A DNA stretch of 54,500 bases from Verrucomicrobiia bacterium. Lineage in GTDB: Bacteria > Verrucomicrobiota > Verrucomicrobiia > Limisphaerales > UBA11358. The position numbers and the translations under genes were made by a program. The stretch spans positions 1 through 54,500 of the forward strand of contig DATAUQ010000095.1 in assembly GCA_036268155.1 (NCBI GenBank), written 5' to 3'. The first letter of the stretch is position 1; each line of letters begins with the position of its first letter. This document shows positions 5,419 to 53,776 of this stretch, one piece after another. The notes under the pieces are model-generated. The model did not search any database, was not told the DNA's origin, and saw only the letters and a list, made by a program, of their open reading frames with translations.

Positions 5419-5954
5419 TCACGGAATTGGTCGAGAAATACAAGCAGCCTGTGATGAATTTTGTTTTCCGCTCGCTGCGTGACGAGGCCGAGGCGGAGGA
5501 TCTGGCGCAAAATGTTTTTCTGCAAGTCTTCAAATCCCGCGCACGCTACGAGCGCACGGCGAAATTTTCCACTTGGCTGTTCACCATCGCGCGGAATTTG
5601 TGCCTGAACGAAATCCGCCGCCGCTCGCGCCATCCCGCCGAATCGCTCGAAGAAACACATCCTGAAAACGAAGACCAGCCGTCACGGCAATACGAGGACA
5701 AGAAAATTTTTCTGCCGACGGAAAATGTATTGCACGGCGAACTCGCCAAAAAAATCGAGGAAGCGCTGGCCGAACTGCCGGAGAACCAGCGCACCGCCAT
5801 CTTGCTCTGCCGTCAGGACGAATTGAGTTACGAAGAGATCGCCGAGGTTTTGGACTGCTCGCTGTCCGCCACGAAATCGCTCATCCATCGCGGACGCGAA
5901 ACGCTCAAGGAAAAACTCAAGCCGTATCTGCAAACCGGCGAGTGGACGGAATAG
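5349..5954 (+). CDS. RNA polymerase sigma-70 factor, ECF subfamily
   Basis: Region 2 (EDLAQNVFLQVFKSRARYERTAKFSTWLFTIARNLCLNEIRRR) and region 4 (LPENQRTAILLCRQDELSYEEIAEVLDCSLSATKSLIHRGRETLKEKL). Confidence 0.9.
   Translation: MMPIQPDPDAVLMLRVKRGDRAAFTELVEKYKQPVMNFVFRSLRDEAEAEDLAQNVFLQVFKSRARYERTAKFSTWLFTIARNLCLNEIRRRSRHPAESLEETHPENEDQPSRQYEDKKIFLPTENVLHGELAKKIEEALAELPENQRTAILLCRQDELSYEEIAEVLDCSLSATKSLIHRGRETLKEKLKPYLQTGEWTE
5889..5946. repeat. 58-bp direct repeat, copy 1 (the last codons of the ECF sigma gene)
   Basis: cgcggacgcgaaacgctcaaggaaaaactcaagccgtatctgcaaaccggcgagtgga is identical at 6365..6422 (hand aligned). Confidence 0.9.
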
Positions 5955-6364
5955 ATTTTGGAACGCGTGAAAATTTTTGTCCCGCAGGGACGACGGAAAT
6001 TAGCCAGCTACGAAGTGGCTGGATTCGTGCGAAAAAACGATGCGTCCTGAAAGGACGCTGGAACTCGTCGTCGCATTTTCCACCGTCCTTTCAGGACGGA
6101 TTTTATTTTTGGACGGCTGACCCGGCACTTTGTGCCGGGCTAATTTCCGGTGTCGCTTTGCGACGGTTTTTTTCCAGCGGACATTTTCGATTAGCGCCGT
6201 AGGTGCGGCATATTTGTAGAAAACCGTCTGATAAAATTTTCCAAGCTCCGTCAGGAGCGACATGGTGGCCGTCCGCAAGGACCGAATATGCCGCTCCTAC
6301 GGAGCTTTTTCATTTTGTGAACGGCGGGCTACAAAGATGCCGCGCCGACGGCGCTCCGAAAGGG
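5955..6364. repeat. composite block of hairpin (REP/MITE-like) repeat units
   Basis: Consecutive stem-loops: gtcccgcagggac, gtcctgaaaggac...gtcctttcaggac, cccggcactttgtgccggg, gcgccgtaggtgcggc, gctccgtcaggagc, gctcctacggagc. Units recur at 21270..21530 and 35896..36070. Confidence 0.8.
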
Positions 6365-6422
6365 CGCGGACGCGAAACGCTCAAGGAAAAACTCAAGCCG
6401 TATCTGCAAACCGGCGAGTGGA
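6365..6422. repeat. 58-bp direct repeat, copy 2 (orphan copy of the sigma gene 3' end, followed by its own stop)
   Basis: Identical to 5889..5946. Here it reads ...GRETLKEKLKPYLQTGEWSD*, against ...GEWTE* in the intact gene. Confidence 0.9.
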
Positions 6423-6444
6423 GTGACTAAAAATATATCCGCTT

Positions 6445-6870
6445 TCAGCGCGTCTTGATTGACTGCCTGCTTCTCATCTGAACACCTTCGCGTCGGAGAT
6501 CGCGACAAAGTTTTTTGAATTCGTGATCAAATTTTTCAGATTTCTGCCAATCGGAAAAATCAGGAATGAAATACTCTCTAATCTCTTGGGCAATATCGCG
6601 CCCGGAATCAGCATCAAAACATTCCCATTCTTTTAACATTTGCATATCGCAAACCCGAATTGGAAATAACTTTCGTTTTCCATCCAGCTTTTCCTGCTTT
6701 CGCGCACGACGAATTTCTGTCTGAACCCAATCGCTTGCAATACTGGATTCAGAAAGAACAATCAGAATTTTATCATGCAAATGAATCGCTCGATCAATTT
6801 GCTCAAAAAGTTTTTTCCCACCTTTCATTTCCTCCGGTGCATACCAAACACGAATCTTCTCGGCTTTCAT
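6445..6870 (-). CDS. TIR domain protein, C-terminal fragment of a split pentapeptide-repeat/TIR gene
   Basis: KIRVWYAPEEMKGGKKLFEQIDRAIHLHDKILIVLSESSIASDWVQTEIRRARKQE matches the TIR pattern (W.D..m..G..l...I..AI.....l.vlS..s..S.Wv..E). The first TIR strand (CFISHSHKDD) lies in the upstream ORF. Confidence 0.75.
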   Translation of the reverse strand: MKAEKIRVWYAPEEMKGGKKLFEQIDRAIHLHDKILIVLSESSIASDWVQTEIRRARKQEKLDGKRKLFPIRVCDMQMLKEWECFDADSGRDIAQEIREYFIPDFSDWQKSEKFDHEFKKLCRDLRREGVQMRSRQSIKTR

Positions 6871-7505
6871 TTCGGCCCATAATTTTCGCGCAAAAAATCA
6901 TCCTTATGGCTATGGCTAATAAAACAAGAGTGAAACTGAATTGGCGTTGCTGCTTCAATAAGGTCAGGAAGGTAGTCGAGTAAAATTGGAGAAAGTCCGA
7001 TCCCCTTGAGAAATTTTATAGGAAGTCCATTGCCAGCTTGGTAGAGGCATTCAACACCAATTGACGATGGAGATACATGAATAACAGTTTCCAATCCCAC
7101 ACAGGTTTCCATATCCACATCGGCAAAAACTGTTTTCCCCATGCGAGATTCTCGAAAAATTGTTCCAAACAAATGGGAACCAACAAACATAGTGCTTTCT
7201 AGTGAGGCTTTGTAAAAATTTGCTTTGGCAAGGTCGGCTTCAGCAAAACTAGCTTCATTTAATTGTGCGTCGCGAAAATTAGCCCCATCTAAAATAGCAT
7301 CTTCAAAATTTGCCCCAGTTAAATCACAGCCAACAAATTCAGCGTTGCGTAATATAGCGCTCTTAAAATTTTGCCCGCTTAAATTTTCTCCAGAAAGATT
7401 TTCGTTTTCCAAATAAACGCCGCGAAAATCCGGATTTTCAGACGCAATTATATCCTGCCAGCTTCTTGAATCTGGAAGCGTGTGTGATTTTTTCCCAATA
7501 GCCAT
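6867..7505 (-). CDS. pentapeptide-repeat protein ending in the first TIR motif; N-terminal fragment of the split gene
   Basis: A run of A(D/N)LxX-type pentapeptides (NLSGENLSGQNFKSAILRNAEFVGCDLTGANFEDAILDGANFRDAQLNEASFAEADLAKANFYKASL), then 'FHSCFISHSHKDD'. It overlaps the next ORF by 4 nt, and the frames rejoin at the T6 run (plus-strand A6 at 6892..6897). Confidence 0.75.
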   Translation of the reverse strand: MAIGKKSHTLPDSRSWQDIIASENPDFRGVYLENENLSGENLSGQNFKSAILRNAEFVGCDLTGANFEDAILDGANFRDAQLNEASFAEADLAKANFYKASLESTMFVGSHLFGTIFRESRMGKTVFADVDMETCVGLETVIHVSPSSIGVECLYQAGNGLPIKFLKGIGLSPILLDYLPDLIEAATPIQFHSCFISHSHKDDFLRENYGPK

Positions 7506-7512
7506 GGATTGT

Positions 7513-8412
7513 TTATTTCTCCCGCTTCAAAAGAAATTCCGCCAGCGCTTCGAGCGCAATGGCTTTGCCTTTGAAAATTTTCAGCGCGGCAAACGCCTTG
7601 GCCGTCAGTTGCGCCGCGATCTGCCGCGATTTTTCCAGCCCGACAATCGCCGGGTAGGTCGCCTTTTGCACGGCCACGTCCTTGCCCGCCGTCTTGCCGA
7701 GCTGCTCACTGGTCTGCGTCACGTCGAGGATGTCGTCAATCACCTGAAACGCGAGGCCGACGTGGTAGCCGAAGTCGGTCAGCGCGGCGAGCTGCGCGGG
7801 TGTGCAGTTCGCGCTCATGCCGCCGAGCCGCACGGAACAGCACAGCAGCGCGGAGGTCTTGCGCTCGTGGATGAATTTCAGTTCGGCGATGGAAAGTTTT
7901 TTGCCTTCGCCTTCCAAATCCGCCACCTGCCCGGCGACGAGCTGCAACGAGCCGGACGCTTTTGCGATTTCCAAAATAATTTTGTCGTGCGGATAGCGCG
8001 GGAATTTTTTGCATTGCGCGGCGATCTCGAACGCCTGCGTCAACAGCGCGTCGCCCGCGAGCACGGCGATGCCTTCGCCGAAAACTTTGTGGTTGGTCGG
8101 CTTGCCCCGGCGGAAATCGTCGTTGTCCATCGCGGGCAGATCGTCGTGGATGAGCGAGTAAGTGTGAATGCACTCCACGGCGCACGCGAGCGGCATGGCG
8201 GCCGCGTCGCTGCCACCACACGCTTCGGCGGCGGCCAAGAGCAAAGCCGGGCGCATTCTTTTTCCGCCGGCAAAGAGCGAGTATCGCATCGCCTTGTGGA
8301 TCGTGGCAGGCTTGGTTTTTTCCGACGGCAGGAATTTATCGAGCGCGGCATTGGCGGTTTCGGTGCGCGTGGCGAGGAATTGGTTCAGATCGAATTGTTT
8401 TGATGCGGGCAT
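7513..8412 (-). CDS. ispA: polyprenyl synthetase (farnesyl/geranylgeranyl diphosphate synthase)
   Basis: First DDxxD motif region 'ECIHTYSLIHDDLPAMDNDDFRRGKPTNHKVFG' and second 'LAFQVIDDILDV'. The likely start is the ATG at 8412 (MPASKQFDL); the ORF-track start at 8448 is an upstream extension. Confidence 0.85.
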   Translation of the reverse strand: MPASKQFDLNQFLATRTETANAALDKFLPSEKTKPATIHKAMRYSLFAGGKRMRPALLLAAAEACGGSDAAAMPLACAVECIHTYSLIHDDLPAMDNDDFRRGKPTNHKVFGEGIAVLAGDALLTQAFEIAAQCKKFPRYPHDKIILEIAKASGSLQLVAGQVADLEGEGKKLSIAELKFIHERKTSALLCCSVRLGGMSANCTPAQLAALTDFGYHVGLAFQVIDDILDVTQTSEQLGKTAGKDVAVQKATYPAIVGLEKSRQIAAQLTAKAFAALKIFKGKAIALEALAEFLLKREK

Positions 8413-8524
8413 AAAATTATTTTCAGAAAATGCCCGAAAGCAGAGCAAGTTTGAAGGGAATTTTTGTTATTGCCTTCGAGTGGGCAGCCGTTAAGCTACG
8501 CGGCTCGATTTGATTTGAAAAAAC

Positions 8525-8779
8525 ATGAACGCTGAACTCTGCAAACGCGCCGCTGAAAAAGTCGGCAACCCGAATGTCCTCGTCAACATCGTCTCGCGCC
8601 GCGTGCGCCAGTTGAATTCCGGCGGCGGCGGCTTGAGCCGTCCGCTGATTGACAACGTGGGCCACCTCGGCGCGGCGGACATCGCGTTGCGCGAGATCAT
8701 CGAGGAAAAAATCGGCTGGAAAATGCCGGAGATCGTCGCCCTGACCCGCCCGGTGGCCAAGAAACGCAAGAAGCGGTAA
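8525..8779 (+). CDS. rpoZ: DNA-directed RNA polymerase subunit omega
   Basis: The 84-aa sequence 'KVGNPNVLVNIVSRRVRQLN...DIALREIIEEKI' matches the RpoZ pattern. Confidence 0.8.
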   Translation: MNAELCKRAAEKVGNPNVLVNIVSRRVRQLNSGGGGLSRPLIDNVGHLGAADIALREIIEEKIGWKMPEIVALTRPVAKKRKKR

Positions 8780-8844
8780 AAAGCGAATGAAGAATTAAGA
8801 AATGATTCATTCTGCCCTCCAGCACTTCTGATTTGTTAAATTTT

Positions 8845-8880
8845 TCTCCTTCATGCTTGGCGTGAAGGAGATTTTTGTTT
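8845..8880 (+). terminator. rho-independent terminator candidate downstream of rpoZ
   Basis: A 9-bp stem tctccttca / tgaaggaga with a 9-nt loop, followed by tttttgttt. It is embedded in a larger low-complexity palindromic element (about 8783..8907). Confidence 0.6.
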
Positions 8881-8917
8881 CTACATTCTTCCTTCTTCAT
8901 TCTACATTTGTTTTTAT

Positions 8918-9373
8918 ATGGCCGACATCGTGACCAACCACAAAGCCCGGCGCGATTATCACATCCTCGAGACATTCGAGGCGGGTATCGTGCTGCACGG
9001 CACGGAGGTCAAGTCGTTGCGCGCGGGCAACGGTCAGATCGCCGACGCCTTCGCGCGCATCGAGAAGAACGAGGCGTGGATTTACAACGTCCACATTGAC
9101 GAATACTCGCATGGCAACTTGCAGAATCACGCACCCAAAGCGCCGCGCAAATTGCTTCTGAACAAATCGGAAATCAGAAAACTTTTTGAACTCGCCTCGG
9201 TCAAGGGCAACACGCTCGTGCCGCTGTCGTTCTACTGGAAAAATGGCAAAGTGAAAGTCGCGCTTGGCGTCGGCAAGGGCAAGGTGGAATATGACCGGCG
9301 CGATGACATCAAGAAACGCGAGTCCGACCGCGAACTCAAGCGCGCGACGATGAATTGGAAGAAAGGGAAATAA
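8918..9373 (+). CDS. smpB: SsrA-binding protein SmpB
   Basis: NHKARRDYHILETFEAGIVLHGTEVKSLR...RKLLLNKSEIRKL...GNTLVPLSFYWKNGKVKVALGVGKGK is canonical SmpB. Confidence 0.95.
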   Translation: MADIVTNHKARRDYHILETFEAGIVLHGTEVKSLRAGNGQIADAFARIEKNEAWIYNVHIDEYSHGNLQNHAPKAPRKLLLNKSEIRKLFELASVKGNTLVPLSFYWKNGKVKVALGVGKGKVEYDRRDDIKKRESDRELKRATMNWKKGK

Positions 9374-9469
9374 GTCGTTAAAATGTTGAATCGTTGAATT
9401 GGATTTGCAACGCTTGCCATGCTAAATCAATTCAAATAATCTGCGGTAAATTCAGCGGAAGGAAATTCT

Positions 9470-10021
9470 ATGAAAGCAAATCAATTGGCAGCACTCGTTT
9501 TGCGACTGCTTGGAATTTATTGCCTTGTCCAAGTCATTCCCGTGGCGTCCATATTTACCAGCGTAATTTTTTCTGCATTAAACGGCGCGAATGGTTCTGC
9601 TTCAATGGCAATTTTGGCTGCCTTATTTTTGATTTCACCAATTGTCATTGGTGTTTTACTGATTATTCGTTCTGTGCCTTGGGGCGAAAAATTGATCTCA
9701 AAAGATGCAGGCGACGGAAATATTTCAGCGGTTTCATTTGAGCAAGTTCAGATGCTCGCATTTGCAGTCACGGGCATTCTTATATTTGCTGGCGCATTGC
9801 CGCAACTATTCAACAGCGTTTTTAACTTATTGCATTTGTTGTCGTCTGAAAATTCACGGAACACTGATCCGATTCACAACAATCCGTATCTAATTGAATA
9901 TGCCATTGGAACGCTCTTGAAAACCGCGCTCGGTCTGTGGCTATTTTTCGGAGCGTGTGGATTTGCAAACTTCTGGCGTTCACTGAAAAATTTCGGGACG
10001 CCGAAGCCGCCGGAAAATTAA
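9470..10021 (+). CDS. hypothetical multi-pass membrane protein
   Basis: Four hydrophobic segments. AT-richer than the flanks by eye, and bracketed by 'tcgttgaa'-type repeat units. Confidence 0.5.
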   Translation: MKANQLAALVLRLLGIYCLVQVIPVASIFTSVIFSALNGANGSASMAILAALFLISPIVIGVLLIIRSVPWGEKLISKDAGDGNISAVSFEQVQMLAFAVTGILIFAGALPQLFNSVFNLLHLLSSENSRNTDPIHNNPYLIEYAIGTLLKTALGLWLFFGACGFANFWRSLKNFGTPKPPEN

Positions 10022-10055
10022 AAATCGTTGAACCGGAAATCCGATTCAACGATTT
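10022..10055. terminator. palindromic hairpin between convergent genes (possible bidirectional terminator)
   Basis: aaatcgttgaa / ttcaacgattt is a perfect 11-bp inverted repeat with a 12-nt loop. It lies between the 9470..10021 (+) and rpmB (-) stops. Confidence 0.45.
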
Positions 10056-10089
10056 AACAATTCAACAAATTACAATTACGCCTTCTTGG

Positions 10090-10347
10090 CTACGTCGCCT
10101 TTTTCCAGGTGCGTTTCGGCGCCTTGGTGACGAGGCCGTTTTTGAGCGCGCTGGCCGCGACTCGGATGTAGCGGACTTCGCCGCTGGGCAGCAAAGCCTT
10201 CACGCGCTGCAAATTCACATGGAACTTGCGCTTGGTGATCGCGGTGATGTGCGTGCCGATGCCGCCGGTTTTCTTGGCCTTACCCGAGCGCCAGATGATG
10301 CTGCCCTTCATCGGGCGTTTGCCGGTCAATTCACAGATGCGTGCCAT
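10090..10347 (-). CDS. rpmB: 50S ribosomal protein L28
   Basis: MARICELTGKRPMKGSIIWRSGKAKKTGGIGTHITAITKRKFHVNLQRV matches the L28 pattern. Confidence 0.9.
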   Translation of the reverse strand: MARICELTGKRPMKGSIIWRSGKAKKTGGIGTHITAITKRKFHVNLQRVKALLPSGEVRYIRVAASALKNGLVTKAPKRTWKKAT

Positions 10348-10468
10348 AAAATTCTTTAGTTAAGAGCCGCGAAGAATAGCAGCGAATCCGCCCATGACAA
10401 GTTCTTTTTCGGAGAAATTCTGTGCGTGCCTTTGCCGCGCGCCGAACGTATCTTCTTTGTTCGATTTT

Positions 10469-11683: not shown

Positions 11684-11693
11684 AGCGGAAAAC

Positions 11694-11778: not shown

Positions 11779-11833
11779 AAAATCAAATTCATTTTGCATT
11801 CGACACCGGGCGTTTGAAATTCAACATTGGCGC

Positions 11834-21269: not shown

Positions 21270-21530
21270 CATGGTTGAAACACGGCTGGAAAGCGCCGTA
21301 GGCGCGAAATATCTGTAAAACAGCAATTCACAAAATGAAAAAGCCCCGTCAGGGGCGGCATATTCGGAAGATGGCGTTCCTGCGGTGCTGCCGAAAATAG
21401 CCCAGCCATTTATGGCTGGGTTATGCGTCATACAAAATGAAAAGTCCCGGAGGGACGGCAGAATGAGTCTTTCGTCCCTGACGGGACTTGAAATTTGGGC
21501 GGACGAAAACCCACGGTTAAAACCGTGGAC
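21270..21530. repeat. block of hairpin repeat units, same families as 5955..6364
   Basis: gcgccgtaggcgc, ccccgtcagggg, cccagccatttatggctggg, gtcccggagggac...gtccctgacgggac, ccacggttaaaaccgtgg. The segment 21286..21352 matches the reverse complement of 6296..6360 closely (hand aligned). Confidence 0.8.
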
Positions 21531-21837: not shown

Positions 21838-21951
21838 TTATTTCTTCCCATGCACCTTCGCCGCGACTTTCAGGCGCAGCGCGTTGAGTCGGATGAAGCC
21901 GGTGGCGTCGTCCTGGTTGTAGGCCTTGGTCGGGTCGGCTTCCATCGTGGC
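21838..21951 (-). pseudogene. orphan copy of the argG 3' end (last 37 codons plus stop)
   Basis: It translates to [37 protein letters not shown]. By hand count it has 9 mismatches over 111 nt against 22741..22851, all synonymous. Confidence 0.85.
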
Positions 21952-21962
21952 CGGGTTTGGGT

Positions 21963-22565
21963 TCATGCTTGCTCCAATCGTTTCTGCCAGAGTTTGGTCA
22001 GTGGCGTCCAGTCCAATCTGTCGGCGGCTTCCAATGCCTGAATGTAATTCTTGCGGGTGGTGTCGTTCTCTGGAGCAAGTTCGACGGGAGGCAATTCCTG
22101 TCGGCGCAAAATTTCGGCGAGCAGCAGACGGGTGGCGCGTCCGTTGAAATCAGGGAACGGATGAATGAACAGGATGCGTCCTTCGGCAAAGGCGAGCGTT
22201 TCCAGCAGCAGCGATTCTTTTCCGATGGACAATTCGGTCAGCCGCACATTCAAATCGGCAAAGTAATCGCGGACAAGCAGCGGGACTTGATGCGGAAGCG
22301 GCGGTGAGTGCTGGCCGACTTTGATTTCGGTTGCGCGAAACTTTCCCGTCCAATCGGGCGTGAGATCGCCGCAGATATTTTTGTGGAGGTCAAGCAGGAG
22401 GGATTCGTCCAGCGGGCGCGCAGCAAAAATGCCGTCCTCAATGTCTTGCAACACCCGCAAGACGCGCTCGGCCAGCAGCGGCGCGAGTTGCGAATAGGAC
22501 AAAATCCCGCGCGTCGTTTCTACGAAGCGCGTGGCGTGCGGCGGTTGTGTAGAGTCTTCAGCCAT
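21963..22565 (-). CDS. Fic family protein (toxin of a class-I Fic module)
   Basis: The Fic motif variant is HPFPDFNGRATR (canonical HxFx[D/E]GNGRxxR, with F in place of the first G). The start overlaps the upstream small ORF. Confidence 0.85.
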   Translation of the reverse strand: MAEDSTQPPHATRFVETTRGILSYSQLAPLLAERVLRVLQDIEDGIFAARPLDESLLLDLHKNICGDLTPDWTGKFRATEIKVGQHSPPLPHQVPLLVRDYFADLNVRLTELSIGKESLLLETLAFAEGRILFIHPFPDFNGRATRLLLAEILRRQELPPVELAPENDTTRKNYIQALEAADRLDWTPLTKLWQKRLEQA

Positions 22566-22696
22566 TCAAAATCCACCGGTTCGCCTTCAAACGCCATGCT
22601 CGCCGCGACCTGGTGCGGCACATCCGCCCAGCGACGAGCTTTGCGCTCCGCTGGTTTCAGTTTTCGCCAATCAGCAATTTTCTTCTGCCAAGTCAT
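22520..22696 (-). CDS. VbhA-like Fic antitoxin (58 codons, below the ORF-track cutoff)
   Basis: My translation is MTWQKKIADWRKLKPAERKARRWADVPHQVAASMAFEGEPVDFEWLKTLHNRRTPRAS*. It contains S-M-A-F-E-G, the [S/T]xxxE[G/N] inhibitory-helix motif, and overlaps the Fic start by 46 nt. Confidence 0.65.
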   Translation of the reverse strand: MTWQKKIADWRKLKPAERKARRWADVPHQVAASMAFEGEPVDFEWLKTLHNRRTPRAS

Positions 22697-22734: not shown

Positions 22735-23964
22735 TCACTTTTTCTTTCCATGCACCTTGGCCGCGACTTTCAGGCGTAGCGCATTGAGCCGGATGAAGCC
22801 AGTGGCGTCGTCCTGATTGTAGGCTTTCGTCGGGTCGGCTTCCATCGTGGCGATGTGCGGATTGTAGAGGCTCACCTTACTCTTGCGTCCGCTGACCATG
22901 ATGTTGCCTTTGTAGAGTTTCACGCGCACCGTGCCGGTCACGTTCTTCTGGCTCTCGGTCACGTAGGCCTGCAACGCGAGGCGTTCGGGCGCATACCAAA
23001 AGCCGTTGTAGACCAACTCGGCATATTTCGGGATGAGCGCGTCGCGCTGGTGCATGACTTCGCGATCCATCGTGAGGCTTTCCATCTGCCGATGCGCAAA
23101 ATGCAGAATCGCGCCGCCGGGCGTTTCATAAACGCCGCGCGATTTCATGCCGACGAACCGGTTCTCCACCATGTCCACGCGCCCGACGCCGTGTTTGCCG
23201 CCGAGTTTGTTCAACGTCTTCATCACGCCGAGCGGAGAAAGTTTTTTGCCGTTCACCGCGACGCAATTGCCTTTGACGAAATCGAGCGTGACGAATTCCG
23301 GCTTGTCCGGCGCATCTTCGGGAAAAACGGAGAGCGTCGTGAAATAATTTTTGTTCTTCGGGTCGAACGAATCGAACCACGGGTCTTCGAGAATCCCGGC
23401 CTCGTAGGAAATATGCAGAAGATTCCGATCCATCGAGAATGATTTCTTCGCGCTGGCCTGCACGGGGATATTGTGCTTGGCGCAGTAATCAATCATCTCC
23501 TGCCGTCCGGGAAATTCGTTGCGATAGCGTTCGTCGCGCCACGGAGCAATGACTTGCAAATCCGGCGCGAGCGCGGCGGCGGTGAGTTCGAAGCGGACTT
23601 GGTCGTTTCCTTTGCCGGTCGCACCGTGCGCGATGGCATCGGCCTTTTCTTTCTTCGCGATCTCGACCATGCGCTTGGCGATGAGCGGACGCGCAATGGA
23701 CGTGCCGAGAAAATACTGGCCTTCATAAATCGCACCCGCGTGAATCATCGGATAAATAAAATCGCGGGCGAATTCTTCCTGCAAATCGTCAATGTAGATT
23801 TTGGACGCGCCGGTCTTGATGGCTTTGGCTTCGAGGCCGTCGAGTTCCTCTTCCTGCCCGATGTCGGCGCAGAAGCCGATCATCTCGGCGTTGTATTTTT
23901 CCTTGATCCAGGACATCAGCACCGAGGTGTCGAGTCCGCCGGAGTAAGCTAAAACAATTTTCAT
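22735..23964 (-). CDS. argG: argininosuccinate synthase
   Basis: [15 protein letters not shown]...[15 protein letters not shown]...ISYEAG are canonical ArgG motifs. Confidence 0.95.
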
Positions 23965-35821: not shown

Positions 35822-35895
35822 CGCCCGCACGATACAAATCAGTTGGAAGAGAATCAAACGCAACCCGCGCCGTCGCGGAGCGACGATTGGAAATT

Positions 35896-36070
35896 GGCCC
35901 GGCACATCGTGCCGGGTTCATGGTTCAAAATGAAAATCCGTCCTGAAAGGACGGTGGAAAGTGTGATGACGGTTTCCAGCGTCCCTTCAGGACGAAAATG
36001 ATTTTCCGCGATGAACCAGACACTTTGTGTCTGGCTAATTTCCGGTTGTCCCGCCGGGACGAAACGCGTG
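35896..36070. repeat. block of hairpin repeat units, same family as 5955..6160
   Basis: cccggcacatcgtgccggg, gtcctgaaaggacggtggaaag...tttccagcgtcccttcaggac, cagacactttgtgtctggctaatttccgg, gtcccgccgggac. It is colinear with 6040..6150. Confidence 0.8.
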
Positions 36071-36078: not shown

Positions 36079-36816
36079 TCAAGCGCGTTTTGGAGTCTTT
36101 CGATTTTGCGTCGGCAGAAGCAAAATAAGCACCAGCGCAATCATAAGCGGATAAAAACAAGCCGAAAGTAGAACATCCCCAATTGAAACTGTAAGATGAA
36201 GGCGAGCCAAATCTAATCCCATTGATTTAATTTTTGCATTGTGCGTTATTGCTGCAACCATCACAAATGCCGCCGCCATGGCAATGATTCCCAAAACTCC
36301 AATTGTCAGACGCAGCCGATTTTCAATAAGCCGTGTTAGTTTGGAAAGCCTGTGAACCATTTTTTCCGACCTCACCAACATGGCTATAACCAACGGAATC
36401 AAAATTGGTGAAAAAGCCACAACATCGCGTGCAATTTCCTGCATCATTTGAAGGGAATCGCTTTCCAATGGCGTGCGGACGATTTGCAGATTAAAGGCCA
36501 TAACTCTAATCACACCAATCAGAATGCTTGATAAAAAAAGTGCCAGCATCCCCCAGAACGCTCGTTCGCGCCAAACTTTGGTCGGATCGGCTTTCACAAA
36601 TTCTTCGCCAATTTGTTGCGGCTGACCAACGCGGCGGCGTGCGAGCCAGAAAGATTCTTCGTCGTTCAAGCCGCGTTGCTGGAATCCGGCGATGGCGTCG
36701 CGCAGGTGCGTTTCCAGTTCGCGCCGGTCGTCGGACGCGAGATTGGGTTGCGCGGCCAGTTCGTTCCGCCAGTTTTCAACGGCGGCGTTCAGATCGAAAC
36801 GGGTTTGATTTTCCAT
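36079..36816 (-). CDS. membrane protein with a conserved soluble N-terminal domain (PadR-associated), paralog 1
   Basis: MENQTRFDLNAAVENWRNELAAQPNLASDDRRELETHLRDAIAGFQQRGLNDEESFWLARRRVG..., then 4-5 TM segments. It ends PTQNRKTPKRA. Confidence 0.7.
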   Translation of the reverse strand: MENQTRFDLNAAVENWRNELAAQPNLASDDRRELETHLRDAIAGFQQRGLNDEESFWLARRRVGQPQQIGEEFVKADPTKVWRERAFWGMLALFLSSILIGVIRVMAFNLQIVRTPLESDSLQMMQEIARDVVAFSPILIPLVIAMLVRSEKMVHRLSKLTRLIENRLRLTIGVLGIIAMAAAFVMVAAITHNAKIKSMGLDLARLHLTVSIGDVLLSACFYPLMIALVLILLLPTQNRKTPKRA

Positions 36817-36823
36817 AACTATT

Positions 36824-37612
36824 TTAAGCGCGTTTTGGAGCCTTGCGATTTTGCGTCGGCATGAGCCAAGCAATTAAGGCAATGAGTATTGCTGGATAAA
36901 GCAAACTCATAAAATTCGCAAAAATAACAAAGGACAATGACAGGCCGTCTGACTGGGTTTCGTATCGCAATAAGGAATTCGCCAGCAAAAGAATATAAAA
37001 CGAAAAAAGTGTCGTGGAAATAAACAGAAACCGGCGGCGTGACTGGAAGAAAAATTGCATCCATGAGAAACCTTTGCTTAACCGTCCGCGAGACAAAAGC
37101 CACGCGATTCCGATCACCGGCAGCAAACTTAAGAAATTAAAAACGATTCTTGAGCTTGGACTGAACAGTAAAGCGTAAAGATCAATATTCGATGGCACTG
37201 GCAAATAAAATCGAACCCAGTCAGGAAACGGAGAAACAGAATGGTATTTATTCAGGAAATATGGCGTCGTGACGGTAGTTTGAAAAATTGCCCACGCGAT
37301 TGATAAAATTCCCGACCAGAGACGAATTGCGAGAAGGATTATTGCAGCCCAAAAAATCCGCTCGCGCCAGACTTTGGCCGGATCGGCTTTCACAAATTCT
37401 TCGCCGAGTTGCGGCGGTTGACCCACACGCTTGCGCGCGAGCCAGAAAGATTCTTCGTCGTTCAAACCGCGTTGCTGGAATCCGGCGATGGCGTCGCGCA
37501 AATGCGTTTCCAATTCGCTTCGATCATCGGACGCGAGATTGGGTTGTGCGGCGAGTTCGTTCCGCCAGTTTTCCACGGCGGCGTTCAGATCGAACCGGGT
37601 TTGATTTTCCAT
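36824..37612 (-). CDS. membrane protein with a conserved soluble N-terminal domain (PadR-associated), paralog 2
   Basis: The same N-terminal 88 aa (7 differences by hand count), a different TM core, and a similar tail PTQNRKAPKRA. Confidence 0.7.
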   Translation of the reverse strand: MENQTRFDLNAAVENWRNELAAQPNLASDDRSELETHLRDAIAGFQQRGLNDEESFWLARKRVGQPPQLGEEFVKADPAKVWRERIFWAAIILLAIRLWSGILSIAWAIFQTTVTTPYFLNKYHSVSPFPDWVRFYLPVPSNIDLYALLFSPSSRIVFNFLSLLPVIGIAWLLSRGRLSKGFSWMQFFFQSRRRFLFISTTLFSFYILLLANSLLRYETQSDGLSLSFVIFANFMSLLYPAILIALIAWLMPTQNRKAPKRA

Positions 37613-37923
37613 AATTTGCACAGGGAGTTGTGAACGGCCAGCCATTGCTGGCGTTCGGTTTTGAGGGCCTTGCGTCCGTCGGAACTGATGAAATAGTATT
37701 TGCGCTCGCGCCCGGTGTCGGCTTCCTTCCATTCGGAATCAATCAGGCCGTCGCGCTCGAGCCGGTGCAAAACGGGATAGAGCATCCCATCGCTCCACTC
37801 GATCTGGCCGCCGCTCAATTCGCGGACTTTCTGGATGATCTCGTAGCCATAGCTTTCGCCGCCCGCGAGGATGGAGAGCAGCAGCGGTTTCGAGGACGCG
37901 GCGACCAAATCTTTCGTAAGCAT
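37585..37923 (-). CDS. PadR family transcriptional regulator
   Basis: LLLSILAGGESYGYEIIQKVRELSGGQIEWSDGMLYPVLHRLERDGLIDSEWKEADTGRERKYYFISSDGRKAL is canonical PadR. The start is taken at the ATG at 37923. Confidence 0.9.
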   Translation of the reverse strand: MLTKDLVAASSKPLLLSILAGGESYGYEIIQKVRELSGGQIEWSDGMLYPVLHRLERDGLIDSEWKEADTGRERKYYFISSDGRKALKTERQQWLAVHNSLCKLWKIKPGSI

Positions 37924-45982: not shown

Positions 45983-45986
45983 CCGT

Positions 45987-47606: not shown

Positions 47607-47613
47607 AGCTGCG

Positions 47614-48453
47614 ATGAACGAAACGCATTTCAAAGGCTGGGCAAAGCCAGGGCCGGTTCCGCCAGGACTCGCTTCCGGCGTGACAATTGAGCCGCACGAA
47701 ACGCTTGATGCCATCAGCGGACATTTTCGTTTGTTTCAATTGCGCGATGGACACCGTTTTTCCACCGACGACATTTTGGCCGCATGGTATGGCACGACTT
47801 GGTGTCCGACCGCGCGCACCGCGCTTGACCTCGGCAGCGGTATTGGAACCGTCGGAATGATTTGCGCGTGGCGTTTGCCCAGCGCGAAATTCGTGACCGT
47901 CGAGGCGCAAAGCGAAAGCATCGCGCTCGCCAAAAAATCCGCGTGCTACAATGGGCTGGCCGGCCGCTATGAAATCCGCGAGGGCGATTTTCGCGCACCG
48001 GAAATTTTACAGGTCAAAGAAAAATTTGATCTCATCACCGGCAGCCCGCCGTATTTTCCTCCGGACTCTGGTGTGAAAAGCGAGCATCCGCAAAAACTCG
48101 CCTGCCGTTTTGAACTGCGCGGAAACATTGACGATTATTGCGCGACCGCCGCGAAGCATCTTGCGTCCGGCGGATTTTTCGCGTGCGTTTTTCCGCGCGA
48201 GCAGGCACAGCTTGCACGCATCGAAGCCGCCGCAAACAAATCCGGCCTCGTCATCGTCCGCAAACGTCCGGTGCTTTTCCGCGAAGGCGGCCCTGCGCTC
48301 ATCGCGTTGTTCGGCATGATGCGCGCGGACGATTTGCCCGAATGGTTTCGAGGCCAGACATGGACGGAGCCGGATTTGATCATCCGCGCGCACGACGGCA
48401 AAATTCATGCCGAATATTCGGCCCTGAAATTGGCGATTGGTTTTCCGCCGTGA
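47614..48453 (+). CDS. class I SAM-dependent methyltransferase (TrmN6/YfiC-like small-domain MTase)
   Basis: LDLGSGIGTVGM (motif I) and ITGSPPYFP (N/D-PPY-type motif IV). Confidence 0.7.
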   Translation: MNETHFKGWAKPGPVPPGLASGVTIEPHETLDAISGHFRLFQLRDGHRFSTDDILAAWYGTTWCPTARTALDLGSGIGTVGMICAWRLPSAKFVTVEAQSESIALAKKSACYNGLAGRYEIREGDFRAPEILQVKEKFDLITGSPPYFPPDSGVKSEHPQKLACRFELRGNIDDYCATAAKHLASGGFFACVFPREQAQLARIEAAANKSGLVIVRKRPVLFREGGPALIALFGMMRADDLPEWFRGQTWTEPDLIIRAHDGKIHAEYSALKLAIGFPP

Positions 48454-48584
48454 ATTTTTCGGCTGCGAATTGAACACGGATTTATGTCGCGCGAAGACTG
48501 CGAAGTTTGCGAAGGAGAATTTTACTTCGATGGATTTCAGAAATTTTCTGTTCCCTTTTCCATCCGGCGGACATTACTTGATGA

Positions 48585-50081
48585 ATGACCAAACGGGATG
48601 ACATCGCCTTGTTGCGCGAATTTGCCGCGACGGAATCCGAGGCCGCGTTTGTCGCGCTTGTCGAACGGCATATCAACGTGGTCTATTCCGTCGCGCTGCG
48701 AAGCACCTGCAACGCGCACGCCGCGCAGGAAATTTCGCAGGCGGTTTTCATCATCCTCGCGCGCAAGGCGAAAGGTTTTTCCAGACGAACAGTTCTTTCC
48801 GGCTGGCTTTATCAAACCACGCGGCTGACGGCGGCGAATTTTCTGCGCGGTGAAATCCGCCGGCAACAACGCGAACAGGAGGCGTATATGCAATCCACTT
48901 TGAACGAAACGGCAAATGAAACGTGGCGGCAAATCGCGCCGCAGCTTGATGACGCGATGGCCGCACTTGGCGAACGCGACCGCAACGCAATTGTGCTGCG
49001 GTTTTTCGAGAACAAAAATTTGCGCGAAGTTGGCGTGGCTTTGGGCGCAAGCGAAGACGCGGCGAAAATGCGCGTGAACCGCGCACTGGAAAAATTGCGG
49101 AAAACTTTCTCGAAGCGCGGCGTGAGTTCGACGACGGCGATTATTGCCGGAGCGGTTTCTGCAAATTCGGTTCAGGCCGCGCCGTTGGGTTTGGCGAAAA
49201 CAATTTCTGCCGTTGCGATTGCCAAAGGCGCGGCGGCGGGCGGTTCAACTTTAGTTTTGGTCAAAGGAGCATTGAAAATCATGGCTTGGACAAAAATGAA
49301 AACGGCGCTCATCGCGGGCACAATTGTGCTGCTCGCTGCGGGAACAGCGACCACTTTTGTTACTCAACACAAACACAAATTGCACGGCGGATCGCCACAG
49401 ATTCACATCAAGGCAAGATTTATTGAAATCCCGAAAGGCTCGGATGATTTCTTAAACTCATTTTCAGGAATCCTTGACGCCAACTCTGCCCAGACGTTTT
49501 TGCAAACGATCAGATCAAAACGTGGCGTTGAGACTTTGGCCGAACCGGAAGCAGTCACCACCAGCGGACGACAGACTCAAATGCGGGCGACGCAAATCAT
49601 CACGGTTATCACGAACTCTATTTTTCAGGAAACCAATTCGACAGGCAGCGTTGTTATTCAAACCACAAAAGTGGAGACCGGGCCGATTTTTGACGTTGTG
49701 CCTGTAGTTTTAGGCAATGGCCAGATTCAAATGACAACCATCGCTTCAACCACCGAATTTTTTGGCTACGCTGATCCCAGTAATTTATCACCACTTTTTG
49801 CAACTAATTCCGCCGGACAACAAATAACTTTGCCCATATTTTTACCGGCGCTTCAAATTAAGCAAGCCTTGACGAAAACCATGCTGGCAGATGGCCAGAG
49901 CTTGCTGCTAATTGTTCCCACGGTAGAACCGCCATCATTTCCTGATGCTGAACGTGAAGCGAGGGTCGCCCAGCACATTGCTGATGCGGAGAAAAAGAAC
50001 GGTGAAAAAACCACAATTTTGCTCGTCACGGTCAATCTGGTTGATTCGGCTGGAAATCTGATTCACCCCAATGTCAGATAA
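48585..50081 (+). CDS. ECF sigma factor fused to a TM segment and a secretin-like C-terminal domain
   Basis: Sigma region 2 (AQEISQAVFIILARKAKGF...GWLYQTTRLTAANFLR) and region 4 (RNAIVLRFFENKNLREVGVALGASEDAAKMRVNRALEKLR). TM (ALIAGTIVLLAAGTATTFV). The C-terminus 'IHIKARFIEIPKG...VETLAEPEAVTTSGRQTQMRATQ...VETGPIFDVVPVVLGNGQIQM' resembles the secretin core. Confidence 0.75.
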   Translation: MTKRDDIALLREFAATESEAAFVALVERHINVVYSVALRSTCNAHAAQEISQAVFIILARKAKGFSRRTVLSGWLYQTTRLTAANFLRGEIRRQQREQEAYMQSTLNETANETWRQIAPQLDDAMAALGERDRNAIVLRFFENKNLREVGVALGASEDAAKMRVNRALEKLRKTFSKRGVSSTTAIIAGAVSANSVQAAPLGLAKTISAVAIAKGAAAGGSTLVLVKGALKIMAWTKMKTALIAGTIVLLAAGTATTFVTQHKHKLHGGSPQIHIKARFIEIPKGSDDFLNSFSGILDANSAQTFLQTIRSKRGVETLAEPEAVTTSGRQTQMRATQIITVITNSIFQETNSTGSVVIQTTKVETGPIFDVVPVVLGNGQIQMTTIASTTEFFGYADPSNLSPLFATNSAGQQITLPIFLPALQIKQALTKTMLADGQSLLLIVPTVEPPSFPDAEREARVAQHIADAEKKNGEKTTILLVTVNLVDSAGNLIHPNVR

Positions 50082-50197
50082 TCCCCATGCCATTCGCCCG
50101 CGCCGCGTTCAATAATAAGCAAATTAAGCTGGACAAATGTCATCAATCGGCGCGTCACTGGTTTGTTCACCATGAAATTTCCGGCGCGAAAGAAACT

Positions 50198-51145
<948 letters not shown>

Positions 51146-51199
51146 ACGGAAATCATGTTTGCCGCCGTGCCTATCGGTCTTCAACCACTTTTTATTTCA

Positions 51200-52222
51200 C
51201 TAGCGCCGCCACCAACTGGTCAGGCCTTTGGCTTTGTGCGGGCTAATCGGAGCGCTGGAGCGTTCCCGCAGCAGCAGGCTGCGCGCGGCCTCGAGTTGCA
51301 TGATGAATTCGTCGTAGCTCAAAAACCGGTCCGACGGATTTTTCGCCATGGCTTTCACCAGCGTTTCGCTCGTGGTCTGTGAAACTTCCGGCGCGACCAT
51401 GTTTGGCGGCGTCAACGGCGTGCTCACCTGCGCGATGATGACTTCCTCCACCGTCGGCGCATCAAACGGAACGCATCCCAGCAGCGCGTGATAAAGCGTC
51501 GCGCCCAAACTATACATATCGGACAGGAAAGTTTCCGGCTCGCGCTTGATTTTTTCCGGCGCGACGTAATACGGCGTGCCTTCGGTGACGGTGGAAAATT
51601 CCTGCTCAGCCTCGACATTCCGCGCCAGGCCGAAATCCACCAGCTTCGGTTCGTTGTCGTAATCGAACAAAATATTTCCGGGCTTGATGTCGCGGTGGAT
51701 CAAATTGTGCTTGAGCGCGAGGTCGAGCGCCGAGGCGATCTTGATCCCGATGTCGAGCACCGCCAGTTCATCCACGCGCTGCTGCTTTTCAATGCGCGTG
51801 TCGAGGCTGCCCCGGTCGGCCAGTTCCATGACGAGATAACGCAACCCTTCCCATTCATCGAACGTGTAAATGTGGATGATGTTCGTGTGGTTGAGCCGGG
51901 CGCAGGCGCGGGCTTCGCGATAAAAACTTTCCAGCGCCGCCGCGTCTTCGAGCAATTCCTTCTTCATCAACTTCACCGCCACGAGCCGTTCCAGAACCGT
52001 GTCCCAGCCGCGATACACCGTGCCGTTGCCGCCCGACGCCACGAAGCTGCGCAGCTCGAACTGCCGCAGCATCATCGGCATCATGATCGGATGACCGCAC
52101 TTGCTGCACGGCACCGTCGCCAGCGGCGCGAGATCGCCGGGGATGAACACCTTCGTCTCGCACGAACTGCACGTCACCATTTTCAACGCTTTGTCGCTCA
52201 TGCTTTGAAACCAATCTAGCAT
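51200..52222 (-). CDS. serine/threonine protein kinase with an N-terminal zinc-ribbon
   Basis: CSSCETKV...CSKCGHPI, then GGNGTVY..VAVK, HRDIKPGNILF, DFGLAR, and APE. The start is ambiguous (ATG at 52222 or 52201; the track start at 52297 lies in a repeat hairpin). Confidence 0.85.
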   Translation of the reverse strand: MLDWFQSMSDKALKMVTCSSCETKVFIPGDLAPLATVPCSKCGHPIMMPMMLRQFELRSFVASGGNGTVYRGWDTVLERLVAVKLMKKELLEDAAALESFYREARACARLNHTNIIHIYTFDEWEGLRYLVMELADRGSLDTRIEKQQRVDELAVLDIGIKIASALDLALKHNLIHRDIKPGNILFDYDNEPKLVDFGLARNVEAEQEFSTVTEGTPYYVAPEKIKREPETFLSDMYSLGATLYHALLGCVPFDAPTVEEVIIAQVSTPLTPPNMVAPEVSQTTSETLVKAMAKNPSDRFLSYDEFIMQLEAARSLLLRERSSAPISPHKAKGLTSWWRR

Positions 52223-52265
52223 CGCGCGCAAATCCGACAACGCAATTTTCACCGCGCAAGTTTGA

Positions 52266-52319
52266 TTGTAGCGGCGGTCTGTGACCGCCGAAAACATCGC
52301 TCATGGAGCGCCGCTACAA
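52266..52319. repeat. hairpin repeat unit ('ttgtagcggcg...cgccgctacaa')
   Basis: 11-bp outer inverted repeat and an inner ggcggt/accgcc stem. Confidence 0.6.
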
Positions 52320-52326
52320 AATCCAT

Positions 52327-52553
52327 TTGACAAACCCCGTGAAATAATGTTTATTCTCCGCTCGGTTTGAAAGTTACAATAATGAAAACCACGTTTGCAA
52401 AAATGCTGCAGCACGCGCAATCCAATGGATATATGTCCATTTGGACGCGCGTTGGCTGCCGTCTTGGCATCGTGGGAACGAACTGATGATTTAACTTTTT
52501 AAGATTTTCAAAAGACCCGCGATTGACTGGCAATCGCGGGTCTTTTGCTTTTT
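52327..52553 (+). ncRNA. candidate structured RNA (sRNA or cis-regulatory leader) from a putative promoter to an intrinsic terminator
   Basis: TTGACA at 52327..52332 with a weak -10 (tttatt) 17 nt downstream. A long imperfect hairpin spans 52408..52459 (gcagcacgcgc...gcgcgttggctgc). The terminator is at 52510..52553. There is no credible ORF. Confidence 0.35.
52510..52553 (+). terminator. rho-independent terminator
   Basis: Perfect 16-bp stem aaaagacccgcgattg / caatcgcgggtctttt with a 5-nt loop, followed by gcttttt. Confidence 0.8.
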
Positions 52554-52577
52554 AACCCAAACACGAAAGGAAAATAC

Positions 52578-52910
52578 ATGAACAAAAATAAAACATTAGT
52601 GCCGACGGAATTCGGCCCTGAAACGCGCTTCGAAGTGCGGGCCAATCCGCCCGCGCCATTTCGCGCCGTGCAGGAAAACGAATTCGAGCGGCTCAAGAAC
52701 AGACTGCTCGCGCAGCAATTGCTCGACGCCGCACCGGAGTTGAACGCCCCGCTGCGGCGCGCGGCCAACGACGCGGCGGCGCTCGCATGGGCGACCGTTT
52801 TCCCGCTGCTCGTGTTCCCGGTGCTGTTCGAGGAAAAAACCGATGCCGCCGTCCTGCGCGCCGGGCGGCAGGCGCGCATCTACGCCAACAGCCAGCTCAT
52901 CGCCGCATGA
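52578..52910 (+). CDS. hypothetical protein (110 aa)
   Basis: The ATG at 52578 is preceded by aaaggaaaataC (an SD-like AGGA). No family recognised. Confidence 0.5.
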   Translation: MNKNKTLVPTEFGPETRFEVRANPPAPFRAVQENEFERLKNRLLAQQLLDAAPELNAPLRRAANDAAALAWATVFPLLVFPVLFEEKTDAAVLRAGRQARIYANSQLIAA

Positions 52911-52926
52911 AAACGCGAATGGGCAA

Positions 52927-52996
52927 AGTGACAAGTGATGAGTGAAAAGTGACGAGCGTGTTTTTGCACGTCACTCGTCACCTGTCACTCATCACT
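52927..52996. repeat. palindromic intergenic element ('agtgacaagtgatgag' family)
   Basis: Arms agtgacaagtgatgagtgaaaagtgacgag / cgtcactcgtcacctgtcactcatcact. Same family as the recG-internal unit. Confidence 0.8.
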
Positions 52997-53007
52997 ATTT
53001 TGGAATC

Positions 53008-53082
53008 TTCGGAACGCGGACAGTTCCTCGCCGTGGAGTTTCAAGCGTCCGCTTGATGCGACACTGTCCGCATTCCTACGCC
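53008..53082. repeat. 75-bp structured direct repeat, copy 1
   Basis: ttcggaacgcggacagttcctcgccgtggagtttcaagcgtccgcttgatgcgacactgtccgcattcctacgcc. It has 3 mismatches against 53702..53776 and the internal stems gcggacagt/actgtccgc and caagcg/cgcttg. Confidence 0.9.
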
Positions 53083-53390
53083 GTTGGGAAGAACCGCGTC
53101 CAATCCTGTGCCGCGTGCAGGACGCGAATTACCACAATGGTCTCTTGAAACGGTTGGTAGAAAATCAGGTAATTGCGGAACCTCGGCACGACAAACCAGC
53201 GGATTTGCAAGTGGCGTGCCGCAGCCTTGCGGATGCGTCGTCCGATTTCAGGATGCTGCGCGAGAAAATCTGCTGTGTTGAGAATTGTCTGCCGAACCCG
53301 TCCCGCCGCCTCGGGATTGTCGGCGTCAATGCGGTTGGAAATTTCGTCCAAGTCGCACGCGGCCTTGAGACTGAACCTGGCCCGGATCAT
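53076..53390 (-). CDS. type II toxin-antitoxin system RelE/ParE family toxin
   Basis: 104 aa; 'A..DL.EI..RI..DNPEAA.R....I......L...P.IGR......R....RWFVVPRFRNYLIFY......I.VIRVLH...D' is the ParE pattern. It has a 4-nt overlap with the upstream antitoxin. Confidence 0.85.
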   Translation of the reverse strand: MIRARFSLKAACDLDEISNRIDADNPEAAGRVRQTILNTADFLAQHPEIGRRIRKAAARHLQIRWFVVPRFRNYLIFYQPFQETIVVIRVLHAAQDWTRFFPTA

Positions 53391-53611
53391 GACCGGCGCA
53401 ATTCGTCGGTGGTCTTCGATTGATCCAGATTTTCCAAACCTTCGTCCAGCAGCCGTTCCAATTCCGGCGTCATCACCACTTCAACGCCACGGCGGCGGGC
53501 TTGATGTTCGCTCAACGCCTCCAGCACGACTTCATCCGACCCTTTGTAACCGCTGGTTTGAACCAGTTCGGCGACGTAGCTTTCAAGATTTCGCGGCAAC
53601 GCGATATTCAT
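53387..53611 (-). CDS. type II antitoxin (ParD/CopG-like)
   Basis: 74 aa; 'MNIALPRNLESYVAELVQTSGYKGSDEVVLEALSEHQ' has the ParD-type N-terminus. It is coupled to the ParE-like toxin. Confidence 0.75.
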   Translation of the reverse strand: MNIALPRNLESYVAELVQTSGYKGSDEVVLEALSEHQARRRGVEVVMTPELERLLDEGLENLDQSKTTDELRRS

Positions 53612-53701
53612 GGGCTCAATTTAATGTGCTGCGAAATTCTGTCAACCTGTAACCCGCGCCAACGGCTTCTCGCCGCGCCTTTTTGTTTCCGGGAAATAAT
53701 T

Positions 53702-53776
53702 TTCGGAGCGCGGACAGTTCCTCGCCGTGGAGTTTCAAGCGTCCGCTTGATGCGACACTGTCCGTGTTCCTACGCC
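53702..53776. repeat. 75-bp structured direct repeat, copy 2
   Basis: See copy 1. It lies 694 bp to the right, immediately downstream of the stop of the 53783..54347 gene. Confidence 0.9.

Follow-up and report, generated by a model that had tools for sequence, protein, structure and literature searches.

Several conserved genes in a lineage of soil and freshwater Verrucomicrobia are directly followed by compact cassettes of 0.4-2.3 kb. A repeat brackets each cassette, its two copies corresponding to the final 60-140 bp of the gene or to a conserved non-coding element. Three such brackets occur in a 54.5-kb contig of a Verrucomicrobiia bacterium (DATAUQ010000095.1; "the window" denotes this whole stretch), one behind a gene for an extracytoplasmic function (ECF) sigma factor, one behind argG, and one in the region behind murA. 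The gene uses the proximal copy of the repeat, and the distal copy, here termed the orphan, keeps its stop codon and is followed by older downstream DNA. The cargo is mostly a toxin-antitoxin (TA) pair or a defense-candidate gene; those TA cassettes that were examined each have a promoter of their own. Proximal and distal copies represent different functional alleles, new units are added on the side next to the gene, and orphans act as crossover points. With a probability of about one half, the brackets are homology-driven "tail-duplication cassettes", analogous to the displacement arrays of rhs, contact-dependent inhibition (CDI) and type VI secretion system (T6SS) loci and to Campbell insertion-duplication as practiced in the laboratory.

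Three brackets and their counterparts in relatives

A direct-repeat search of the window recovers all three repeat pairs named in the original prediction, at the places given there. The inserts also hold what had been described: 410 bp of repeats only behind the sigma-factor gene, 789 bp encoding a 58-aa antitoxin and a Fic protein behind argG, and 611 bp encoding a ParD-like antitoxin and ParE between copies of the non-coding element, R3. The features of the three loci are as follows.

5349-5954 (+): ECF sigma-factor gene, 201 aa, using the proximal tail copy (Pfam Sigma70_r2/r4_2/ECF)
5889-5953 (+): proximal sigma tail copy, ending ...GEWTE-TAG; 5889-5946 identical to the orphan
5955-6364 (no strand): cargo of the sigma bracket, 410 bp, only dispersed palindromic repeat elements, with inverted-repeat units at 6026-6115 and 6193-6355
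6365-6430 (+): orphan sigma tail, RGRETLKEKLKPYLQTGEWSD-TAA; beyond it the downstream context is different and low in GC (direct-repeat search)
22735-23964 (-): argG, argininosuccinate synthase, 409 aa; its 3' end at 22741-22851 is the proximal copy; closest relatives are the argG genes of other metagenome-assembled genomes (MAGs)
22520-22696 (-): putative antitoxin of the Fic module, 58 aa, starting 38 nt past the argG stop; kept with Fic in six genomes
21963-22565 (-): Fic/Doc-family toxin, 200 aa, PADLOC candidate PDC-S04, with a TGA stop that overlaps the ATG of the orphan reading frame (Pfam, PADLOC)
21838-21966 (-): orphan argG tail, an intact 42-aa open reading frame (ORF) with its own TAA stop; repeat proper at 21841-21951; then older downstream DNA (direct-repeat search)
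54344-54500 (-): 3' end of murA, cut by the window end; anchor of the third array (sequence)
53783-54274 (-): 163-aa low-GC ORF filling the slot between murA and R3, where relatives have other genes (ORF analysis)
53698-53780 (-): murA-side (proximal) copy of R3, non-coding, 3 nt after the stop of the 163-aa ORF (direct-repeat search)
53387-53611 (-): ParD-like antitoxin, 74 aa, preceded by a -35/-10 promoter of its own (~53620-53660) (sequence)
53076-53390 (-): ParE toxin, 104 aa, whose final codons and TAG stop fall within the distal copy of R3 (Pfam)
53004-53086 (-): distal copy of R3 (direct-repeat search)

The sigma copies (5889-5953 and 6365-6429) are identical at the first 58 of 58 nt and then part in frame, over two conservative codons and the stop (TE-TAG in the proximal copy, SD-TAA in the orphan). 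The argG copies (22741-22851 and 21841-21951) have 9 differences in 111 nt, all of them synonymous, and the orphan has one Lys fewer; the same bracket is also present on a metagenome contig separately deposited by the Joint Genome Institute (JGI). The R3 copies (53004-53086 and 53698-53780) differ at 5 of 83 nt and share a perfect core of 55 nt, and shuffled sequences are expected to yield 0 such matches. The third repeat had been reported as 75 bp with 3 differences; that match is real but is just a sub-stretch of the 83-nt repeat. Its locus had also been taken for a gene end, which it is not, as R3 is non-coding and the 163-aa ORF separates its murA-side copy from the murA stop codon. R3 is modestly structured (z -1.5 and -2.2, a branched fold without GTTRRRY ends). 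It has no match in Rfam or ARAGORN that would make it an RNA gene or a tRNA end, and a search for similarity to murA, as would be expected of a decayed murA tail, found none.

Related loci and contigs were fetched for comparison and are labeled with L-numbers (e.g., L037). The closest relatives of the window argG are found in subdivision 3, Pedosphaera, and Limisphaerales MAGs, and the argG set comprises loci from 80 species-level genomes, 72 of which were scored for orphans. The sigma set consists of 80 loci fetched from metagenomes, with 76 contigs scored, the window included. With the score threshold for argG set from a reverse-strand control, orphan argG tails lie downstream of argG in six of the 72 loci (L030, L033, L035, L037, L043, and L046) and in the window, with two orphans in L037, and the control gave 0/72. 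Orphan sigma tails occur on seven of the 76 contigs (L095, L109, L121, L122, L126, L129, and the window; control 0/76). The same gene ends are thus bracketed across the lineage, which disposes of the coincidence that the original prediction had entertained. Genome-wide enrichment was approximated with two scans, one of ~0.84 Mb of related contigs that looked for repeat pairs and one of 1.5 Mb that looked for tail copies; within those 1.5 Mb of fetched sequence, copies of the sigma, argG, and murA tails are present only at their own loci. The murA tail is itself duplicated in L162, where an orphan of its last 59 nt plus the stop codon (2419-2477 versus 3024-3082) lies 605 bp behind murA with an 87-aa ORF of unknown function between the copies.

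The suspected enrichment of the cargo for TA and defense-type genes is borne out, the cassettes carrying mostly type II TA modules (Fic, ParE, PIN, MazF) together with defense candidates. Across genomes, each of the argG and sigma sites holds at least 4-5 different cargos. Those behind argG include the Fic module, a 115-aa ORF, a ~300-aa secreted protein, and an ORF6N protein that is listed by PADLOC as candidate PDC-S05. Behind the sigma-factor gene they include a PIN-type TA pair, a MazF-type TA pair, a fucosidase with a DUF1559 protein, and repeats only. The ParE module, with 426 close homologs, is found in several surroundings. Its bracket is R3 in the window and in L162, the distal R3 is cut to 24 nt in L163-166, a different repeat of 136 nt (~90% identity) brackets it in L184, a decayed repeat of ~62 nt does so in L167, and no bracket was detected in L177. 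Across these contexts, conservation is limited to the stretch between the -35 box and ...QDWTRFF of ParE, and the flank supplies the final codons and the stop.

Allelic tails, proximal accretion and concerted evolution

The order of events at these loci is recorded in arrays. L037 has the order of L046 (an argG tail followed by a leader, the 300-aa gene, and an orphan), into which an ORF6N unit has been inserted beside argG; its first orphan is the former tail with the leader downstream of it, and the tail and leader that are now proximal match their counterparts in the ORF6N unit of L030. In L129 a new unit stands before an orphan, followed by the PIN module that in L109 and L122 comes directly after the sigma-factor gene, and a second, more decayed orphan lies after the PIN module. 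These two arrays indicate that a cargo and the proximal tail before it move together, displacing older tails outward. L121 and L126 have a distal tail and flank of the native type, that which directly follows the sigma-factor gene in other contigs, and a proximal tail of another, foreign type. The window argG orphan is closer than the proximal copy to the tails of relatives in 64 of 78 comparisons, and against the nearest relative the orphan shows 92.8% identity, the proximal tail 86.5%, and the body of argG 92.2%.

The Fic module, close homologs of which are found on hundreds of contigs, gives a measure of age. In six of six backgrounds examined, argG is followed by 169 nt that include the antitoxin, then by Fic, and then by the orphan ORF with its ATG overlapping the Fic stop; the genes flanking argG differ between these six backgrounds, and Fic always lies behind argG. 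Third-codon identity between Fic genomes is 0.54-0.73 for Fic and 0.60-0.76 for argG (the near-identical pair L196/L198 left out), so the Fic module has diverged along with argG. The PIN module has co-diverged with the sigma-factor gene in the same way. The brackets are old and are not fresh insertions, and a recent horizontal spread of the Fic and PIN cassettes is not supported, given the same co-divergence.

Over a common stretch of 96 nt each argG orphan is 2-8 nt from its own or a related tail, and the orphans do not group together; that they are undecayed despite their age is concerted evolution with the gene tail. Exchange within an orphan is seen in the co-occurring strains L196 and L198, in which argG is 98% and Fic 100% identical. 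The first ~40 nt of the orphan are common to both strains and the rest of it differs, as does everything downstream, and this difference is a crossover inside the orphan. Among the mechanisms listed in the original prediction, homology-based capture fits best, given the different functional alleles, the crossovers inside orphans, and the concerted evolution of orphan and gene. Template switching primed by hairpins finds no support at the two coding repeats, both folding no better than shuffled sequence (z +0.9 for sigma and +1.0 for argG).

The last ~96 nt of argG are themselves similar among genomes, with 2-14 nt differences between the window, L033, L187, L196, and L206, though the gene bodies are 80-90% identical; these tails are either homogenized by recombination or under constraint at the nucleotide level. 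Hairpin sequences lie inside some orphan argG tails, 27 nt in L198 (~3660-3690) and CCCGCACGGCGGG in L037 (~3700-3720), and tiny palindromic elements thus also land in bracket repeats. In addition, some metagenome contigs of ~0.9-1 kb consist of a cassette alone with both ends inside the bracket repeats (L192, L193, and L208 for Fic, L185 for ParE), and their termini overlap exactly or near-exactly by 55, 19, 30, and 66-81 nt. These overlaps are ambiguous as evidence of circles: they could represent a circular excised form or a loop in the assembly graph, since a direct repeat in the chromosome gives the identical loop.

A bracket may arise when a molecule carrying gene tail plus cargo pairs homologously with the resident gene on one side and joins a point inside the resident tail on the other. 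One possible route is Campbell-type single-crossover insertion of a putative circular molecule of cargo plus tail; the first capture of cargo could alternatively proceed by homology-facilitated illegitimate recombination (HFIR). Afterwards host homologous recombination between tails would suffice to keep the copies alike and to remove the cassette without a scar. The same recombination could carry the cassette into any genome with the gene, whatever its downstream DNA, exchange the downstream context, and stack new units beside the gene. Recombination of this kind would account for concerted evolution, for the scarless absence of cassettes in close relatives, for context swaps, for the growth of arrays, and for the tie between cassette and gene. 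TA modules may predominate by penalizing the deletion that direct repeats favor, and TA or defense cargo fits because such repeats constantly threaten deletion.

How chromosomal TA modules and small defense cassettes move without nearby mobile-element genes is an old open question, to which this lineage offers a testable answer. Because the cassette keeps a second copy of the end of its host gene, homology is available on both sides within a single gene, and ordinary recombination could insert, scarlessly remove, stack, or re-home cassettes wherever the gene exists, regardless of synteny. The idea of the displacement array would thereby be widened from polymorphic toxin loci to housekeeping genes. 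In the literature searched, no account was found of TA cassettes that lie behind housekeeping genes and are bracketed by gene tails; the logic is close to that of displacement arrays and of integrative-element accretion. There are practical consequences as well, in that orphan tails get called as small ORFs and brackets break metagenome assemblies into contigs of ~1 kb.

Several observations weigh against an origin by homology alone. In seven of seven cases the start of the sigma orphan falls 65-70 nt before the stop codon ends, with at least five unrelated cargos involved, and the chance of such spacing for five independent events in a span of ~110 nt is ~1e-5 by the authors' own estimate. 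Random illegitimate joins should scatter, and starts confined to 6 nt therefore leave a fixed point that homology does not explain. The ParE cassette lies in at least three frames, each with local direct repeats of 62-136 bp, so that de novo capture must be fairly frequent. Cassettes are trimmed to the codon, with the stop of the last ORF coming from the distal repeat, and repeats of 58-136 bp are short substrates for RecA. The search for recombinases extended a few kb to each side of a locus (3-6 kb requested, less at contig ends), not over whole genomes. The fixed start at sigma and the trimming at codon level keep a site-specific enzyme acting in trans a serious rival.

Possible trans-acting enzymes and other proposed origins

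The most durable alternative to homology-driven displacement, though an unlikely one, is that the cassettes are miniature integrative elements in the manner of integron cassettes, cis-mobilizable elements, or tycheposon satellites, with a copy of the end of the host gene as their recombination site, inserted at a fixed point of the gene tail by an integrase encoded elsewhere and pushing older units outward. Seven of seven sigma orphan starts within 6 nt, at the short palindrome TCGCG-GN-CGCGA, are as expected of such an enzyme, as is the constant right edge, ~4-7 nt past the stop. The accretion of arrays on the proximal side also agrees with it, as do the compact cassettes with an ORF stop inside the repeat, like those of integrons, and tycheposons are known with arrays of partial tRNAs from successive integrations. 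Yet the sites are not uniform. No convincing motif is common to the sigma, argG, murA, R3, and other-frame junctions, two of which have short palindromes that may be due to chance. The argG orphan junctions are spread over 27 nt, and micro-orphans with the tail only occur there. For a single cassette, ParE, the repeat ranges from 24 to 136 nt. The folding of the coding repeats, no better than that of shuffles, and the crossovers in mid-orphan also speak against an integrase.

Nor has a candidate integrase come to light. The ~50 ORFs of the window are ordinary housekeeping genes by Pfam, without a recombinase or transposase among them (the related loci were not searched for transposases), and jackhmmer, with XerD, Cre, and a resolvase as seeds, recovered no tyrosine recombinase from 5,183 ORFs of 160 related loci and the window. 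The absence of a recombinase from the window, asserted in the original prediction, is upheld by both searches. The sole recombinase in the 160 loci is a serine recombinase in L038 (9600-10355), which lies downstream of argG at a distance of ~4 kb; no orphan was detected in that genome. No integrase or remnant of one was found between the repeats or in the few-kb flanks of ~150 argG and sigma loci, and in all ~200 loci gave no tyrosine recombinase beside a bracket. No AT-rich dif-like sites are visible by eye at the junctions, a search with the dif consensus of this phylum not having been made. It is also rather doubtful that the distal junction is the work of a dedicated enzyme acting in trans on one fixed position of the tail (-65 to -70 in sigma) in an integron-like manner, with copies of host gene ends as its sites; if so, such an enzyme would give TA and defense cassettes a gene-addressed means of movement without carrying a recombinase.

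Less probable is the proposal that the brackets are decayed integrase-bearing islands or prophages at gene ends, of which deletions left only the att repeats and an addictive TA module. Gene 3' ends are classic att sites at which integration rebuilds the gene from the element-borne copy, TA modules resist deletion, and the distribution of the cassettes among relatives is patchy, all as such a history would predict. However, no full-size element or integrase fragment was observed at the argG and sigma sites in ~150 loci, and there is no pseudogene debris between the repeats. Several independent cargos abut the repeats within a few nt on both sides, a fit that random deletions would not produce.

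A long target-site duplication, produced by staggered breaks 60-140 nt apart or by template switching that resembles microhomology-mediated break-induced replication and returns upstream of its departure point, is improbable. It would explain the context-specific direct repeats of the ParE cassette in several frames, and the copies are nearly identical even past the stop in L033, L122, and L206. Elsewhere, however, the copies are different functional alleles, with synonymous-only differences or alternative last codons, Fic is tied to argG in every background, and concerted evolution explains the near-identity. The bracket duplications measure 58-136 bp, against the 2-15 bp of target-site duplications made by transposons, insertion sequences, and miniature inverted-repeat transposable elements. 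The argG and R3 gene cassettes have no terminal inverted repeats, and the sigma insert itself consists of palindromic repeat units. Duplications of 60-140 bp are not known from any bacterial insertion machinery.

Coincidence in a repeat-rich genome, or an assembly artifact joining strain variants, might be suggested by the abundance of dispersed palindromic repeats and by the many cassette homologs on ~1-kb contigs that end inside repeats, but is effectively refuted by the shuffles and reverse-strand controls, by the recurrence of the topology across independent samples and assemblers, with some contigs measuring several hundred kb, and by the orphans not being members of dispersed repeat families.

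Known systems and neighboring sequence

The tail-duplication cassettes resemble the rhs, cdiA-CT/cdiI, and V. cholerae T6SS effector-immunity arrays in having a conserved homology anchor, an incoming unit beside it, and the former 3' piece displaced as an orphan. As in those arrays, the newest unit is proximal, the incoming allele comes from another strain, and the displaced 3' fragments kept downstream retain a recombinable stretch of the conserved gene. HFIR has been proposed for displacement in T6SS effector-immunity and rhs arrays, where no integrase is known (PMC5361080). The anchors described here (argG, the ECF sigma factor, and murA) differ from those of the rhs, CDI, and T6SS arrays in being housekeeping or regulatory genes rather than polymorphic toxin genes with a variable toxic tip. 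Only the last 20-45 codons are displaced, and the cargo is a free-standing TA or defense cassette past the stop codon.

Insertion by a Campbell-type single crossover of circular DNA carrying a 3'-terminal gene fragment is RecA-dependent and is reversed by recombination between the duplicates. Laboratory insertion-duplication gives the arrangement seen here of an intact gene, inserted DNA, and a second copy of the fragment; unlike its products, tail cassettes would be natural, heritable, and recurrent, and form arrays, and their circular intermediates are putative. Tycheposons, genomic islands, and cis-mobilizable elements use the 3' ends of target genes or tRNAs and accumulate in tandem, with partial target copies scattered through the island. 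The direct repeats of the target's 3' end, the gene restored from the incoming copy, and the older integrations pushed outward are shared with these elements. Unlike tail cassettes, however, such elements encode an integrase or derive from elements that do, with a fixed att core, whereas the units described here are 0.4-2.3 kb in length, have no integrase that could be found, and have repeat limits that vary at argG and R3.

Cassettes of integrons and of clusters of attC sites lacking integron-integrases (CALINs) are compact, with one or two genes and many TA modules; a similar repeat overlaps the stop of the ORF, and the newest unit is proximal. The tail cassettes are alike in compactness, in TA cargo, in the repeat that lies over the ORF stop, and in the proximal position of the newest unit. 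They differ in that their repeats are copies of host gene ends rather than attC hairpins, the folding result leading to the rejection of attC-type sites for both coding repeats, and in that IntI and attI are lacking. IntI and attI are also absent from CALINs. Template and variable repeats of a diversity-generating retroelement are likewise rejected, as no reverse transcriptase domain is present in the window by Pfam and the nine argG differences are mixed third-position changes and not adenine-specific.

The repeats that fill the sigma insert belong to a dispersed palindromic family with copies in the window (5975-6166, 6282-6355, 21292-21367, and 35870-36064) and in other Verrucomicrobia (L002, L011-L013, L019, L030, L042, and L059). 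In L106, L115, and L142 copies lie directly 3' of the sigma stop codon. A marginal match to the Rfam family Acido-Lenti-1 falls at 6121-6165 (38.2 bits; cut-off 37). Immediately past the sigma orphan, at 6445-7505 (-), are a low-GC pentapeptide-repeat ORF (6867-7505) and a TIR-domain ORF (6445-6870) with a 4-nt overlap, which look like a single defense-type gene split by a frameshift. Palindromes of the GGTCACAAnTTGTGACC-type, operator-like in appearance, follow the argG stop in L003, L007, L029, L030, L037, and L053, and the ORF6N gene is confirmed behind them in L007, L030, L037, and L053; in L053 the orphan behind the ORF6N cassette has shrunk to ~15 nt. Repeats upstream of argG in many loci are conserved N-termini of DUF1559/N_methyl paralogs and are irrelevant here. 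Many of the 200-aa Fic homologs (hits P0121-P0240) are named "CRISPR-associated endonuclease/helicase Cas3" by JGI, which looks like a propagated mis-annotation; their nearest NCBIfam model is "mobile mystery protein B", below its cut-off.

Elsewhere in the window, the direct-repeat search returned only two local pairs besides the three brackets, both in a tandem pair of paralogs at 36-37.7 kb. These paralogs (36079-37732, -; 264 and 302 aa, neither with a match in Pfam) have 267 nt in common at 88% identity, plus a 44-nt block, and are an ordinary tandem duplication, unconnected with the brackets. A 498-aa protein of unusual architecture is encoded at 48585-50081 (+), in which N-terminal ECF sigma regions 2 and 4 are combined with a weak, Secretin-like match at the C-terminal end.

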